Origin: a virus
Lineage: Duplodnaviria > Caudoviricetes
DNA length: 58,621 bases
IMG/VR virus record: IMGVR_UViG_3300032321_001507
Coordinates: 1-58,621 of that record
Strand: one strand, 5' to 3'
How positions within the stretch are numbered: position 1 is the first letter of the stretch; each line of letters begins with the position of its first letter. Made by a program: the position numbers and the translations under genes. Shown here piece by piece: positions 1 to 4,401 of this stretch. The notes under the pieces are model-generated. The model saw only the letters and a program-made list of their open reading frames with translations, had not been told where the DNA came from and did no database searches.

Positions 1-23
1 ACGTATAATAATTAGATAAAGAT

Positions 24-236
24 ATGAAGACAAAAATCGAAGAATTAAAAGAATCAATTGGTAAAGTAATGTCACACAACTACAGCCCTACACTTAGAGC
101 GAAATTAGTTAAGGTGAATAGAGTAACGTGTGTACTTGAAGTGTCACCTGGTGAACATGTTAAAGATAAAGATTACTGTGTAGGTTTAACATTTACTGAT
201 GATGTAAATAGAGTATGGAACTCTTTATATTACTAG
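24..236 (+). CDS. hypothetical early protein
   Basis: 70-aa ORF with the shared AGATATGA start context. Confidence 0.7.
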   Translation: MKTKIEELKESIGKVMSHNYSPTLRAKLVKVNRVTCVLEVSPGEHVKDKDYCVGLTFTDDVNRVWNSLYY

Positions 237-262
237 TCAGAATTCAGATTGTATATTAACGT
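236..262 (+). promoter_or_regulatory. early-cassette promoter motif (GTCA-N10-yGTATATT)
   Basis: GTCA 236-239, 10-nt spacer, TGTATATTAACGT; recurs with identical spacing upstream of other early ORFs. Confidence 0.7.
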
Positions 263-277
263 ATAAGATAAAAAGAT

Positions 278-598
278 ATGAAAAAGACAGAAAAATCAGC
301 AAACGGAACATCATTCCACGACGTAACAATTACAACTTCAATTAACGATTTAACTAGATTATTAGGTGAACCAACATATACTGGTGATTTTAGTGAAGAT
401 AAAGTAACAGTTGGGTGGGTATGTGAAACTGAAGAAGGTGAAGTAGTGACAATCTATGATTGGAAAGAATATAGATGGATAGATAAAGATGAAAAAATTG
501 AATTTCATTTGGGTGGTCGCAGAAAAATCCATACATTGGATGCGAAAGATGAATTAGTTGATATTATGAAGACATATTTCAGTATCAAAATTGCTTAA
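278..598 (+). CDS. conserved phage hypothetical protein
   Basis: 106 aa; LLGEP..DKV..W..TIYDWK..FHLGG pattern; AGATATGA start. Confidence 0.8.
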   Translation: MKKTEKSANGTSFHDVTITTSINDLTRLLGEPTYTGDFSEDKVTVGWVCETEEGEVVTIYDWKEYRWIDKDEKIEFHLGGRRKIHTLDAKDELVDIMKTYFSIKIA

Positions 599-608
599 AT
601 AAAAAGAT

Positions 609-677
609 ATGACAAAGAGAGATTTAATACTTGTAGTAGCAGCATTAGTAATAATGGTAGCAATAGTAATAGCATAA
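609..677 (+). CDS. 22-aa single-TM micropeptide (not in ORF track)
   Basis: MTKRDLILVVAALVIMVAIVIA*, preceded by the shared AAAGATATGA start. Confidence 0.6.
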   Translation: MTKRDLILVVAALVIMVAIVIA

Positions 678-690
678 TAAAGATCGTCGC

Positions 691-739
691 GAGTAGATCT
701 GACGGCCGCGTAAAGGTGCCGCTACTCAAAAAGTCAGAT
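691..739 (+). ncRNA. predicted RNA pseudoknot
   Basis: GAGTAG(691-696)/CTACTC(722-727) crossed with ATCTGAC(697-703)/GTCAGAT(733-739); inner GGC/GCC stem; GC-rich in an AT-rich genome. Confidence 0.55.
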
Positions 740-781
740 GGCTGCTGGAAATAGACAGCGGACAGCTGGAGAGACAGCGTT

Positions 782-834
782 AGTCAGGTGGGGGTCAAGG
801 GGCTTCACTGCGGGTTCGAGTCCCGTCCTGACTA
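782..834 (+). ncRNA. truncated tRNA-like RNA (acceptor stem + T-arm, no anticodon arm)
   Basis: AGTCAGG/CCTGACT 7-bp acceptor stem, GCGGG-TTCGAGT-CCCGT T-arm, discriminator A834; only 21 nt where the D and anticodon arms should be. Confidence 0.7.
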
Positions 835-835
835 C

Positions 836-918
836 TACAGGACTTCATATCTCCTGTAAATTTCATATCTTAATTATTTAACGCACTGATAGAAGCCGAC
901 GCCCGTCGGCTCTCAGTG
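836..918 (+). ncRNA. candidate antisense sRNA against early-gene start regions
   Basis: TCATATCT twice (845-852, mostly in a hairpin loop; 863-870) plus TAATTATTTAA; closes with a GC-rich hairpin at 884-918. Confidence 0.5.
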
Positions 919-922
919 TCTC

Positions 923-976
923 GTCACAGTCCGCCTCGTATATTAACGTGTTAGATAATTAAAACAAACAGATATG
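923..976 (+). promoter_or_regulatory. early-cassette promoter + leader
   Basis: GTCA-N10-CGTATATTAACGTGTTAGATAATTAAAAC..AGATATG. Confidence 0.75.
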
Positions 977-1255
977 ACAAAGACAGAAAGAAACAAAACG
1001 ATCAACAAGCAAATTTACAAGTTAGCTGAATCATTAGGTTATGAATTAGACATGAACGAAACAGATGTAATATTCATTTCACCTGATGGAAACATGGATA
1101 ATGATATTCAATACAGAAGATCATGTCATACAGTGGCTGCCTTAAATTGGGCATCTACCAAAACATTAGGTCATGAAAAGTTAATGGATGATTACATTGA
1201 GGAATTAAAAGCAATGACTGATGAAGAATTATTGATTGAGCACCAAGGTGCTTAA
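974..1255 (+). CDS. hypothetical early protein
   Basis: 93-aa ORF after cassette promoter. Confidence 0.75.
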   Translation: MTKTERNKTINKQIYKLAESLGYELDMNETDVIFISPDGNMDNDIQYRRSCHTVAALNWASTKTLGHEKLMDDYIEELKAMTDEELLIEHQGA

Positions 1256-1304
1256 TCACAATTCCACTCGTATATTAACGCATTAGATAATTAAAACAGA
1301 TATG
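1255..1304 (+). promoter_or_regulatory. early-cassette promoter + leader
   Basis: ATCA-N10-CGTATATTAACGCATTAGATAATTAAAACAGATATG. Confidence 0.75.
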
Positions 1305-1478
1305 AAAAAATTTACAATTAAAGAAACAAGACCAGCCACTTACATCTGGTATTATGAAGTAGAAGCTGAAAACGAAAACGAAGCATTAGAAAAAGTATTT
1401 GAAGGCTTAGAAGACCCAATCAATGCAGATGTAGAATTAGATTACAGTGTAGATGGAGAATTCGAAATAGTAGATTAA
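1302..1478 (+). CDS. 58-aa acidic protein, DpnD/PcfM-like (not in ORF track)
   Basis: MKKFTIKETRPATYIWYYEVEAENENEALEKV...; VEAExxxEA motif; follows cassette promoter. Confidence 0.7.
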   Translation: MKKFTIKETRPATYIWYYEVEAENENEALEKVFEGLEDPINADVELDYSVDGEFEIVD

Positions 1479-1480
1479 TA

Positions 1481-1720
1481 ATGAAGAAAGACATGACAGT
1501 AGAAAGATTAACCGAAATGGATACGATCCAACTTATCCACTACCTCGCAGCCCAATCGTTGGATGAATTAAAATCATTAGCAAAACGTGTAGCAATTGAA
1601 CGATACAACAAATATGATATCAGATACTCATCCGTGTATCAACATATTTCCAATATTATAGTTCAACGTAATACCGATTCAGCAACCAAATATAGATTAG
1701 AAAATTATAAAACCCGATAA
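1481..1720 (+). CDS. hypothetical protein
   Basis: 79-aa ORF tightly packed in operon. Confidence 0.65.
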   Translation: MKKDMTVERLTEMDTIQLIHYLAAQSLDELKSLAKRVAIERYNKYDIRYSSVYQHISNIIVQRNTDSATKYRLENYKTR

Positions 1721-1721
1721 C

Positions 1722-1919
1722 ATGAATCAGCCAACAGATGCCGACTACAGAGTCGTATTAGCAACATTGCTAGCCAAATTATCAGTAACAATTCAAACGT
1801 CCTCACACGGGCAGATGATGAATGAAGACCTAGTTCAACTCATACGTCAATCATTCCAAGACAACAACGTAGAGATGCCACCATCCATCGCTAAAGCATT
1901 CGGTAGACCTAACGTGTAA
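1722..1919 (+). CDS. hypothetical protein
   Basis: 65-aa ORF tightly packed in operon. Confidence 0.6.
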   Translation: MNQPTDADYRVVLATLLAKLSVTIQTSSHGQMMNEDLVQLIRQSFQDNNVEMPPSIAKAFGRPNV

Positions 1920-1942
1920 CAACGTTAAGTCAACCGTTGCCT

Positions 1943-1998
1943 GTCGGAATCGTACTCGTATATTGAATCGTTAGATAATTAAAATAAACAAAGATATG
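1943..1998 (+). promoter_or_regulatory. early-cassette promoter + leader
   Basis: GTCG-N10-CGTATATTGAATCGTTAGATAATTAAAA..AGATATG. Confidence 0.7.
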
Positions 1999-2229
1999 AC
2001 AATTAAAGATTTAAAAAACGGAACACCATTTCATTACAAGACATCATTAATTACTTATAAACTTGAAAAATCAGGTTATGACAACACTTATTTCATTGCA
2101 ACAATTGGATCACATATTGCAAATGTTAAGTCAATAGGTTCTAAAGTAATTAAAGGATATACTTATGTAATGAATAAACGAGTTAATATTAGTATTGATA
2201 TTAGAGATTGTAAGGAAGCGACTGAGTAA
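1996..2229 (+). CDS. hypothetical early protein
   Basis: 77-aa ORF after cassette promoter. Confidence 0.75.
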   Translation: MTIKDLKNGTPFHYKTSLITYKLEKSGYDNTYFIATIGSHIANVKSIGSKVIKGYTYVMNKRVNISIDIRDCKEATE

Positions 2230-2232
2230 TCA

Positions 2233-2287
2233 GTCACTATTCCCCTCGTACATTAACGTATTAAATAATTAAAACAGATAAGATATG
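2233..2287 (+). promoter_or_regulatory. early-cassette promoter + leader
   Basis: GTCA-N10-CGTACATTAACGTATTAAATAATTAAAACAGATAAGATATG. Confidence 0.75.
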
Positions 2288-2509
2288 ATTACAAACAGTT
2301 ACATCCAAGATGATTACATATTCAGATATGAGCCATACTTTGATTCAATGGTTAGAACAGCCATAATCGATCACGTAAATAAAGAAGTTAGACCATGCCA
2401 TGGTTATTTCATCCCAAACCCATATGGTAAACTAAATGAGGACCTGGCTAACACATTAGGTTATAGATTCAATAATGGTTTAAGCGCTAACAATATAAAA
2501 CATAGATAA
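2285..2509 (+). CDS. hypothetical early protein
   Basis: 74-aa ORF after cassette promoter. Confidence 0.7.
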   Translation: MITNSYIQDDYIFRYEPYFDSMVRTAIIDHVNKEVRPCHGYFIPNPYGKLNEDLANTLGYRFNNGLSANNIKHR

Positions 2510-2512
2510 GAT

Positions 2513-2737
2513 ATGACACAGACAAAAGATCAAGCAGTAGAGACCATCATCAACATGTTAAAAAACATAGATGTAGATGGTGAAACAATGGAATATATCA
2601 TTGGGGAAGTAGGTATGCTAGACCAAATGACAAAACAACTAATAATGACCACTAGACATGATGATTTAGAATATTATCTATCTGAACGTTATGAATTAGA
2701 ACAATTACTAGTACAAATCGATTTAAATACAAAATAA
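2513..2737 (+). CDS. hypothetical early protein
   Basis: 74-aa acidic ORF, AGATATGA start. Confidence 0.7.
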   Translation: MTQTKDQAVETIINMLKNIDVDGETMEYIIGEVGMLDQMTKQLIMTTRHDDLEYYLSERYELEQLLVQIDLNTK

Positions 2738-2738
2738 T

Positions 2739-2834
2739 ATGGAACGTAACATAGTAATAGCAGGACTAATCATGATGGTGCTCCTAGCAATAAAAATCAC
2801 CATATTCATACACATGACCAAAAACAAGCGCTAA
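2739..2834 (+). CDS. 31-aa single-TM micropeptide (not in ORF track)
   Basis: MERNIVIAGLIMMVLLAIKITIFIHMTKNKR*; TAAtATG coupling to the flanking ORFs. Confidence 0.55.
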   Translation: MERNIVIAGLIMMVLLAIKITIFIHMTKNKR

Positions 2835-2835
2835 T

Positions 2836-2955
2836 ATGGATGAGCAATGGACACTCACCGATCTAAACATACGATTGGACAAACTCGAGCAAGAAATACA
2901 ATGGACACGAGAGATGATAGATATTATTCAGGAGGACATAGATGCACAAAATTAA
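2836..2955 (+). CDS. 39-aa acidic coiled-coil peptide (not in ORF track)
   Basis: MDEQWTLTDLNIRLDKLEQEIQWTREMIDIIQEDIDAQN*; TAAtATG coupling. Confidence 0.5.
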   Translation: MDEQWTLTDLNIRLDKLEQEIQWTREMIDIIQEDIDAQN

Positions 2956-2957
2956 TG

Positions 2958-3227
2958 CGTTTGTAAAAAAGAGACACGTTTGTAAAAAAATCATCGTTGA
3001 TAGCGTCCCGGTAGCGGTATGTGCGCGGAGTGCTCCCACGGTAATTGCGGTCCATCGATGGGGTGCGTGTGGTGCACAACAATCTATGGTATTCATAGCA
3101 CGAACACAATCTTTACACATCGACAGTATATACGCATATACTACCCACGTCACGTCGCCACGTCACGGTACCACGTTACGTCGTCCAACCATTCACCATC
3201 GTTCCCATCCATCCACCCATCGTTCCC
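2958..3227. repeat. non-coding repeat cluster (candidate origin / genome end / pac region)
   Basis: CGTTTGTAAAAAA x2 (2958, 2977); CCACGT(C/T)ACG x3 at 13-nt period (3145, 3158, 3171); CCATCGTTCCC x2 (3196, 3217); inverted repeat 3125-3142. Confidence 0.65.
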
Positions 3228-3345
3228 CACATCGTGATATTAAATTTCAAAATAACCCTTTTTGTCCTACTTTGCATAAATCCAAAATCTACTCTTATAC
3301 GATCTTTTTACTATAAAAAAAGTATATACTTAGATATGTGGCTTG

Positions 3346-3368
3346 GTCAGAATTTCTCTCGTATATTT
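3346..3368 (+). promoter_or_regulatory. early-cassette promoter motif
   Basis: GTCA-N10-CGTATATTT upstream of ORF 3414. Confidence 0.7.
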
Positions 3369-3413
3369 TATTAAACATAAACAATTCAAACATTTAAAAC
3401 CACATTAACAATT

Positions 3414-3923
3414 ATGGCAACAACAATTAAATTAAAACAAGATTATTACGGTACTAAAGATTACGGAAAACGAGCATTTTACATATTAGATGCAGATGGC
3501 AATTATTCATTCGATTTTGTATTCATAGAAGACCTTGAAGAATGGATCGATTGGAAACGAAGCGAAGGAAAATCACTTGAAATTGAATATGCAGATGGTA
3601 ATTTGCGAATATATGATGCAAAATCAAATAAGGTTATGAAATTATTTAAAGGAATGACAAAAAAGGGTGAATATTTCACCGAATTAATTAAAATTGAAGA
3701 TTTTACAACTATTGAAGATTGTTTAAAAATTATTAATGATTATTTTTTAGAAGATGACGATGATTGTTTATATGAGACAGATGATATAGAAGAAAAAGAT
3801 TATAAATATGCTTATATATCACAAGATGGCTCAGTTACTTTTGTTGAAAGTTTAGACGAATTTTCAGAGTCTAGAAAAACAGAAGAAGCTTGGGATGTAG
3901 ATTTTTGGACATCTTTAAATTAA
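3414..3923 (+). CDS. acidic hypothetical protein
   Basis: 169-aa D/E-rich ORF. Confidence 0.8.
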   Translation: MATTIKLKQDYYGTKDYGKRAFYILDADGNYSFDFVFIEDLEEWIDWKRSEGKSLEIEYADGNLRIYDAKSNKVMKLFKGMTKKGEYFTELIKIEDFTTIEDCLKIINDYFLEDDDDCLYETDDIEEKDYKYAYISQDGSVTFVESLDEFSESRKTEEAWDVDFWTSLN

Positions 3924-3927
3924 GGTT

Positions 3928-4401
3928 ATGAAAACAAAACGTATTACACACGAGCAAGCTAAGGAATCTTTTTTTCCTAAACCATCCTCTTGGATGTTAA
4001 ATAAAGACACTTTTTTTACTTTAACCCCCAACGAGAAAGACCCCACAACCGATAACGTACACTATTGGATCGAGCGCCAACGTTTTGATGCTCACCTTTC
4101 ATTTAACGAGGGTTTTATCTATATTCTTGAATCCTCTGGTACTCCAGGCATCCTAAAAATCGGTTATACTGATCGTTCCGTACAAGAGCGTGTATCTGAA
4201 ATTAATTCAGCTACTGGAGTTATTATTCCTTATTATCCTATTTCTTCTTTCCATTGTAAATCTCCTAAGCATATCGAGACTCTCGTCCATCAAGCTCTTC
4301 ATACTCATCGCGTTAACAAAGAGGGTTTTAATGTTTCATTAAAGCATGCTAAAGAGATTATTGAGAAAATTATCGCGGAAAACAACGCTCATATCGAGTA
4401 A
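3928..4401 (+). CDS. GIY-YIG nuclease family protein (T5orf172/MUG113-like)
   Basis: GFIYIL..LKIGYT.R....R...IN.ATG...IE..VH..L...RV..E.F motif set. Confidence 0.85.
   Translation: MKTKRITHEQAKESFFPKPSSWMLNKDTFFTLTPNEKDPTTDNVHYWIERQRFDAHLSFNEGFIYILESSGTPGILKIGYTDRSVQERVSEINSATGVIIPYYPISSFHCKSPKHIETLVHQALHTHRVNKEGFNVSLKHAKEIIEKIIAENNAHIE

Follow-up and report, generated by a model that had tools for sequence, protein, structure and literature searches.

The C4 RNA of phages P1 and P7 is a phage-encoded RNA whose loop-displayed seeds pair with ribosome-binding regions and thereby block translation, and Hartmann and colleagues reportedly connected the C4 antisense RNA precursor with RNase P in 1995. 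The locus described here, positions 835–920 on the plus strand of an uncultured tailed-phage sequence (IMG/VR record IMGVR_UViG_3300032321_001507; Duplodnaviria, Caudoviricetes), is a candidate regulator of the antisense kind, an anti-start RNA element that adjoins a truncated tRNA-like element and carries two complements of a start region shared by early genes of the same phage. The window analyzed is the whole viral record, 58,621 nucleotides (nts; 58.6 kb), estimated to be 36% complete. To judge from the sequence comparisons below, 835–920 is very probably a selected plus-strand RNA element. With less assurance, yet still as the probable reading, it is taken to be an antisense RNA of ~85 nts, in the 3′ tail of an early operon, that would block early start codons, in trans rather than in cis. 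Like C4, the candidate is encoded by a phage, displays its seeds in loops, and would be excised from a longer transcript by a tRNA-processing enzyme. It differs from C4 in that its seed covers the start codon instead of the Shine–Dalgarno (SD) region, its candidate targets are a set of duplicated cassettes, a separate tRNA-like element precedes it, and its phage is lytic and T4-like; Rfam models at their gathering thresholds, C4 included, have no match in the whole window.

Other described systems share single features with the locus. In the leuZ 3′ external transcribed spacer of Escherichia coli and in MALAT1/mascRNA, an RNA or RNA end falls out as a by-product when RNase P, RNase Z, or RNase E cuts beside a tRNA or tRNA-like fold, as proposed here. 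The leuZ spacer is a sponge for other small RNAs (sRNAs), whereas the candidate is proposed to act on start codons; mascRNA is the best, albeit weak, Rfam match of the tRNA-like element in the window, which at 16.2 bits (threshold 42.5) is not a member. Hairpin loops of the YUNR (U-turn) type present their following bases for fast pairing in antisense RNAs, as outlined in PMC4485353. The candidate loop likewise starts U-U-C-A, suggesting a U-turn geometry, but the YUNR antisense RNAs of plasmid copy-number and toxin–antitoxin systems are encoded in cis and fully complementary to one target, whereas the candidate is encoded apart and shares 8–21 nts with its putative targets. In T4, according to the outline in PMC3014915, RegB cuts GGAG in early SD regions and RegA binds ~30 mRNAs at their AUG or just 5′ of it. 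The resemblance lies in a global, post-transcriptional shutdown of early genes through a shared feature of the initiation region; RegB and RegA are proteins, whereas the effector here would be an RNA acting on a GATATGA or GTTATGA start context in an SD-less setting. Finally, the PeSL cassettes of T4-type phages are variable-region small open reading frames (ORFs) flanked by a stem-loop and a repeated early promoter, with neighbors shuffled between close relatives (outlined in PMC2839356). The locus has this makeup, with a hairpin at 884–918, a repeated motif at 936–948, and neighbors exchanged in a near-identical relative (L218), although the motif is not a sigma-70 consensus, and both promoter and terminator are predictions. 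A PeSL is a promoter plus a terminator; an antisense seed, a tRNA-like element, and a standardized start context do not figure in the abstract of PMC2839356. By analogy, then, the candidate would work most like phage and plasmid antisense RNAs with YUNR-loop seeds. It belongs to no Rfam family. Limited, broad literature searches, including a catalogue of viral structured RNAs apart from its supplementary tables (PMC10690425), yielded no description of such an element.

The sequence-only reading from which this analysis started held that eight early ORFs begin in an identical context, four of them behind a common leader, and that the exact complement of this context occurs twice in the adjoining noncoding stretch, once on a hairpin and once fused to a leader match, before a strong terminal hairpin. 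All of this is borne out. The start motif AGATATGA has 15 matches in the window on both strands, compared with a mean of 4.66 (sd 2.07, largest 12) in dinucleotide shuffles, none of 100 reaching 15. Eight plus-strand copies set the ATGs at 24, 278, 609, 974, 1302, 1996, 2285, and 2513, another at 2324 lies inside an ORF, and four are far away. The only minus-strand copies in the 58.6 kb, at 845–852 and 863–870, sit 18 nts apart inside the element. Exact copies of the leader TTAGATAATTAAAA stand at 951, 1283, and 1971, and a copy with one mismatch at 2261; a repeated motif, TCGTATATTAACG, lies 12–15 nts upstream of the leaders. In the anti-start hairpin (TACAGGA/TCCTGTA), the loop core TTCATATC is the complement of GATATGAA, and the 10-nt CTTCATATCT that of positions 20–29; at the second, single-stranded copy, the complement of TTTCATATCTTAATTATTTAA matches 273–283 and the leader at 2261–2272. 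Folding of 836–920 yields −28 kcal/mol (z = −5.8), as good as which was none of 200 shuffles; 859–883 is unpaired in the minimum-free-energy fold, and the strong hairpin closes the stretch at 884–918.

Predicted pairing points to the same set of genes. Duplexes of 836–883 with the eight targets have energies from −13.9 to −19.2 kcal/mol, compared with a mean of −8.4 (sd 4.0) over all 79 ORF starts, and the six best of the 79 are early AGATATGA genes. The mean over the eight targets, −16.5 kcal/mol, was not reached by any of 300 shuffled queries (mean −7.8, sd 1.5). In a relative, G003, the average is −17.4 kcal/mol for 18 GATATGA starts, compared with −12.9 for 87 other starts. With its loop unpaired in the folds, the element thus offers a conserved, accessible seed complementary to initiation regions, one of the features by which a regulatory sRNA is recognized. 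As to expression, the early region of a relative, including the conserved 5′ block of the noncoding tail, is present in an RNA library: in run X1, which held 0.06 of the sampled words, contigs 90–99% like the window fall on 272–397, 409–516, 676–820 (the deepest, 10.4), 907–1146, and further stretches, contigs that carry no strand, ends, or level and could include DNA carry-over. No contig falls on 821–906 in this library with its 0.06 of sampled words.

The design recurs in five contigs of three lineages, always on the coding strand, with one, two, or three hairpins whose 9-nt loop is YTTCATATC or CTTCATAAC. In all five distinct elements the hairpin starts 1–3 nts after the discriminator of a tRNA-like element. 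Two loci, L218 and L310, are near-identical to the window. In G003, whose locus L014 was found by its promoter and leader pattern, a homologue of the 106-aa ORF upstream of the element is followed by three long tRNA-like elements with hairpins one base on (AACGCG-TTTCATATC-CGCGTT, AAGGT-CTTCATATC-ACCTT, and ACCG-TTTCATATC-CGGT), then by TTTTAATTATCTAA, an exact leader complement, and a hairpin with a U-tract. The G003-like L279 has AAATGGA-TTTCATATC-TCCATTT and GCGCCG-TTTCATATC-CGGTTTG, then the anti-leader TTTTAATTATCTAA and a terminator; in both, TTTTAATTATCTAA occupies the same relative place as the anti-leader of the window. Scanning 201 distinct tRNA-like 3′ ends for adjacent hairpins added L076 (a locus of the complete genome G005) and L081 (G006), each with AACTG-CTTCATAAC-CAGTT. 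A U-tract terminator follows the element on the coding strand in G003, L279, L076, and L081. Homologues of the 106-aa ORF also precede the RNA locus in L218 and L279; the relative L007 has the gene without the RNA locus, and in G002 a promoter directly follows the tRNA-like element.

A metagenome scan returned at least 118 stretches, with a true T-arm before the match in eight among the matches listed, L218, L310, and L279 included. NTTCATATC has 445 sites in the 2.73 Mb of DNA fetched, five of them distinct and held in a stem of at least 5 bp with at least two G/C; four of these five are the anti-start element, and the fifth, in L168, lies in a coding region and was set aside. A double-motif pattern matched 32 stretches, none of them listed by the tRNA-like 3′-end filter over all fetched loci, and another pattern matched seven, of which L014 alone is real. 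Also discarded were L240, an ordinary terminator, and a site in L081 with GAGATCATATCTC, which is a repeated upstream promoter element and not an anti-start hairpin.

Both the stem and the loop bear marks of selection. In an alignment of eight hairpin units, the loop varies at only two of its nine positions, and the 7-bp stem is paired in 85.7% of cells, compared with 53.8% in shuffles (0/500). Its covariation score is 0.86 against 0.25 in shuffles (0/500), with both sides changing in six of the seven pairs, and shifting the partner by 1–3 columns as a control drops pairing to 33–43%. A conserved secondary structure with compensatory changes, another feature of regulatory sRNAs, is thus present. 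Segment 836–883 has no differences between the window and either L218 or L310, as opposed to 3 and 8 in the interior of the tRNA-like element and 7 and 5 in the promoter plus leader; the flanking genes differ as well. L218 carries a compensatory double change in the 884–918 stem, at 899 and 906.

The seed, too, varies together with its presumed target, as the sequence-only reading had anticipated for relatives. Among ORF starts at most 10 kb from the hairpin, GATATG and GTTATG starts number 7 and 1 in the window, 20 and 3 in G003, and 5 and 0 in L279, all with a TTCATATC loop; with a TTCATAAC loop, the numbers are 2 and 15 in G006 and 1 and 5 at the G005 locus. Pooled without L218, a near copy of the window, the ratios are 32:4 and 3:20, respectively (Fisher p = 5e-9), a p value that overstates the covariation because the ORFs are duplicated cassettes and hence not independent, and come from about three lineages with two loop types. 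In G006, the coding strand carries 15 copies of GTTATGAA and the opposite strand a single one, which is the loop. In G003, three of the seven opposite-strand copies of GATATGAA are loops, inside an 88–94.5 kb cluster of GATATGAA starts. This genome harbors two early cassette families at 75–95 kb (L072–L074): one, at 88–94.5 kb, has the leader TAGATAATTAAAA and a GATATGA start and is the sole family with matching anti-start loops, and the other, at ~75–85 kb, has the leader GGTATAATAATTAAAATAAATAAA and a GGTTATGA start.

The element immediately upstream, at 781–834, had been called a mini-tRNA. The structural part of this description stands: there is an 8-bp closing stem, 781–788/827–834 (in tRNA numbering, an acceptor stem of 7 bp), the T-arm is perfect, and the anti-start hairpin adjoins the 3′ end of the element. 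It is not a tRNA, however. It has neither a D nor an anticodon arm, ARAGORN finds no tRNA genes in the window, and relaxed Rfam matches within 600–1000 all have E >1, with only the acceptor stem and T-arm aligned in mascRNA, YrlA (16.1 bits), and tRNA-Sec (15.7 bits, threshold 47). Its last 23 nts recur without change in tRNA-like elements of four other viral contigs, and it belongs to a phage tRNA-like family (AGTCAGG ... GGTTCGARTCCYGTCCTGACTA) that shares the acceptor stem and T-arm around a variable interior. A slightly degenerate pattern of the 3′ end has at least 162 matches in at least 120 viral stretches; among the matches listed, the 5′ acceptor half was found for 146 elements that span 54–191 nts, and ARAGORN calls a tRNA in 33 of these 146, with mixed anticodons. 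At 54 nts, the window element is among the shortest. Across the family (window 781–835; L008–L012, L014, L075–L194, L324–L343), a Leu-type D-arm is found in 141 of 184 distinct elements, and genomes have several copies each; the elements might punctuate processing or serve as a scaffold for variable RNA cargo. In 185,579 species genomes, the 3′ end turns up in 20 stretches, all on metagenome-bin contigs, many labeled Bacteroidota, and none from an isolate. For this reason an attachment-site copy of a host tRNA end was rejected, and 781–834 is a tRNA-like module specific to phages, its acceptor stem and T-arm conserved and its interior free to vary, rather than a piece of a host tRNA. A minihelix of acceptor stem and T-arm suffices for RNase P and RNase Z, so that a role as a processing signal would be reasonable.

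Several observations concern the surroundings of this module. Its interior differences from L218 and L310 all fall in 789–809, with 150 nts identical on either side, a case of local hypervariability in a frozen block. Anti-start words are not enriched in the interiors of the 184 tRNA-like elements. Two long G003 elements (L014 7664–7806 and 8056–8163) contain the start-like words AGAGATATGAG and GATCATATGAAAG, which by sequence could pair with the neighboring anti-start loops, although start-like words, too, show no enrichment over the 184 elements. Upstream, the conserved block 679–780 holds, on inspection of its sequence, a degenerate tRNA 5′ half at ~742–770 (AGTCAGATGG plus a D-arm-like stretch), and may belong to the same RNA or to another one.

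Could the complementarity serve a purpose within a single transcript? In a read-through RNA, 859–883 would fold back on the leader and start of the next gene (948–976), which would then be translated only from transcripts of its own promoter, and there would be no free sRNA. The predicted fold of 836–1000 indeed pairs 862–883 with 948–976 (−43.2 kcal/mol, z = −5.2), read-through is plausible in the window because the 884–918 hairpin has no U-tract, and the next gene in G003 and L279 also has a matching leader and GATATGA. However, the U-tract terminators of G003, L279, L076, and L081 lie between the element and the next gene, and in L076 and L081 the start of that gene is, in addition, not complementary, so downstream cis pairing cannot explain that lineage. 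A single helix would also have no need of one to three loop-displayed copies, and the first hairpin is idle in the cis fold; action in cis is therefore judged unlikely. Somewhat less likely still is that the loops are anticodon-loop mimics or protein-binding hairpins, with UUCAUAU or UUCAUAA as a decoy or site for a tRNA-directed enzyme, a nuclease, or a phage RNA-binding protein, and with start complementarity following from CAU being the complement of AUG. If a mismatch is taken to close it as a 7-nt anticodon loop, its positions 33, 34–36, and 37 are U, CAU, and A, respectively, and the hairpins do adjoin tRNA-like elements, the window stem even being the T-arm stem of their family. This explanation leaves aside the 12–14-nt anti-leader, the single-stranded second copy that matches 21 nts of leader and start, and the variable loop position that tracks the local start context. 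The initiator tRNA has three G–C pairs next to its anticodon loop, whereas the stems next to these loops share neither this nor any other sequence.

Two further explanations would make the inverted motifs an accident or a message of the other strand. The early region consists of repeated promoter/leader/start cassettes like the recombining PeSL cassettes of T4-type phages (outlined in PMC2839356), and 859–883, taken from the minus strand, looks like a leader with its start; shuffling of such mobile cassettes could have left an inverted, partial, functionless copy. Such a scar is very unlikely, as it would not account for loop-in-hairpin copies with at least five unrelated, compensated stems in three lineages, for their constant orientation and position after a tRNA-like 3′ end, for the invariance of 836–883 amid varying neighbors, or for a seed that tracks the start context, and the promoter part of a cassette is absent. 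Least credible, and hardly to be entertained, is expression of the minus strand, as a small ORF (MKFTGDMK...) or a start-site decoy from an inverted cassette. Both motifs do read as AGATATGA starts preceded by TTAAATAATTAA. Yet the peptides, 6–38 aa overall (17–28 aa in the window, L218, and L310; 38, 7, and 6 aa in G003; 35 and 6 aa in L279), are unlike in frame and length and not conserved, the frames through the tRNA-like complement differ, no promoter motif lies on the minus strand, all 44 window ORFs of at least 150 aa are on the plus strand, and the terminators face that strand. This ORF had been named as a rival by the sequence-only reading, whose interpretation is supported by this outcome and by the covariation.

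The antisense reading in trans, which we favor over these, has points against it as well. Besides the competing cis fold and the likeness of the loop to a CAU anticodon loop (U33, A37), the core seed is only 8 nts, and no more than about three independent lineages, with two types of loop, carry the covariation. Most of these genomes have both start contexts, and G003 has 19 coding-strand copies of GTTATGAA and no TTCATAAC loop. The motif is missing at four of the 12 small plus-strand ORFs of 1–3000 (1481, 1722, 2739, and 2836), and the claim that it marks all early genes was too strong, since eight of the 12 carry it. The 884–918 hairpin was not flagged by a terminator scan. The stem ACAGG/CCTGT is the commonest T-arm stem of the tRNA-like family, and the window hairpin may therefore descend from a T-arm. 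Lastly, phage and host are both uncultured.

In the favored mechanism, where transcription, cleavage, a trans mode of action, and repression as the direction of the effect are our inferences, 835–920 would be the 3′ part of a noncoding tail (679–920) of an early operon, transcribed on the plus strand along with ORFs 278 and 609. Host tRNA-processing enzymes would recognize 781–834 and cut at its 3′ end, freeing an RNA of ~85 nts that ends in the GC hairpin. The 8-nt seed UUCAUAUC would be displayed in the 9-nt hairpin loop, which begins with a YUNR of the U-turn type, and a second copy would stay single-stranded, fused to the anti-leader. Both could pair with GAUAUGAA, the start codon and its neighbors, on mRNAs of the duplicated early cassettes and so block 30S binding; as the RNA accumulates, early proteins would be turned down. 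In short, the element is probably a small RNA controlling early-gene translation because its loop complements early starts and relatives keep the design. The features of the locus are collected in the table.

Features of the anti-start locus and its surroundings in the window
Feature	Position	Strand	Detail or basis
Anti-start hairpin	836..858	+	Stem TACAGGA (836–842)/TCCTGTA (852–858), 7 bp; 9-nt loop CTTCATATC (843–851)
Second anti-start copy, single-stranded	859..883	+	TTTCATATC (861–869) joined to anti-leader TTAATTATTTAA (870–881)
Strong GC hairpin, probable 3′ end/terminator	884..918	+	Fold; no U-tract in the window
Truncated tRNA-like element	781..835	+	Acceptor stem 782–788/827–833, T-arm 810–826, discriminator A834, then C835
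Conserved GC-rich noncoding block	679..780	+	0 differences vs L218 and L310 over 102 nts; flanking ORFs differ
Eight AGATATGA sites, putative targets	20, 274, 605, 970, 1298, 1992, 2281, 2509 (span 20..2516)	+	Motif count
Early-promoter-like motif TTGTATATTAACG	249..261	+	Recurrence before early ORFs
ORF, 106 aa, AGATATGA start	278–598	+	Upstream of the element
ORF, 22-aa hydrophobic peptide, AGATATGA start	609–677	+	Upstream of the element
Next early cassette: promoter-like motif, leader TTAGATAATTAAAA, AGATATGA start of ORF 974	936..977	+	Motif matches

The promoter-like motif recurs with at most one mismatch at 249, 936, 1268, and 2246 and with three at 1956, each time before an early ORF. 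A generic sigma-70 scan flagged none of the copies with 0–1 mismatch, its sole match to a motif copy being the 3-mismatch one at 1956. The copy at 249..261 is, as far as motif recurrence tells, probably where transcription of the unit with the RNA element at its end begins, and the cassette at 936..977 is a candidate target, in trans or in cis. PHROGs comparisons of 10 early ORFs gave two weak matches only, both to families of unknown function; the protein encoded at 974–1255, adjoining the element, has no relative in the viral contigs, and blastn against GenBank phages found no match for window positions 1–4000 or for the G003 locus. A second GC-rich stretch, at 2985–3245, lacks a credible ORF, shows a strong switch in skew from G to C, and contains short repeats (CACGTCAC and CCATC); it has no Rfam match and folds no better than shuffles (z = +1.1), and RNA-library contigs of the relative fall on 3131–3308. 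In a further phage group, an 18-nt self-complementary sequence, TCATATCTCTCAATATGA, is placed between a stop codon or tRNA-like end, which it follows directly, and a GC hairpin (L204, L239, L243, L314–L323), and early starts have GAGAG 2–4 nts ahead of the ATG. The 18-nt sequence could be an anti-start or anti-GAGAG element of a related kind; its exact complement GAGAGATATGA is rare at starts, with one copy each in two of 10 viral loci, and the group is therefore not counted as support.

The window encodes terminase, portal, major head, and baseplate-wedge proteins of a T4-like myovirus. By major capsid protein, Flavobacterium phage vB_FspM_immuto comes nearest among named phages (57.6% identity); the closest cultured phage by this protein has no such tRNA-like element. 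From ~11787 on, many middle and late ORFs, structural genes among them, have the motif ATATTTATA 5–25 nts ahead of their ATG (for example ORFs 11787, 17831, 25531, 37772, 42714, 44334, and 47930). The late promoter of T4 is TATAAATA, which ATATTTATA recalls, and by this analogy it may be the late promoter of the phage group. The regions upstream of 79 window ORFs are A/T-rich, and an SD motif was not found in them. This fits Bacteroidetes, because mRNAs there naturally lack the SD sequence and initiation is tuned by structure and nucleotides near the start, as outlined in PMC6847099; the host is probably a Bacteroidota bacterium without SD use.

The timing of gene expression in Bacteroidota phages is little known. 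If host ribosomes ignore SD sequences, the start codon and its neighbors are what a regulator can target, and a natural variant pair (U or A in the loop; GAT or GTT before the ATG) amounts to a ready-made compensatory-mutation experiment. One may go further and suppose, tentatively and with rather more doubt than for the single locus, a class of regulators in Bacteroidota-type T4-like phages: sRNAs released from tRNA-like “punctuation” elements, with U-turn loops antisense to the starts of mobile early cassettes, as an RNA counterpart of RegA/RegB suited to an SD-less host, in which seed and start would co-evolve as the cassettes spread (GATATGAA/UUCAUAUC and GTTATGAA/UUCAUAAC). An RNA that reads a standardized start context would, for its part, account for the identical start sequence that dozens of unrelated early ORFs retain, would provide a simple switch-off of the whole early class, and would tie the abundant and unexplained tRNA-like elements of these phages to RNA processing.

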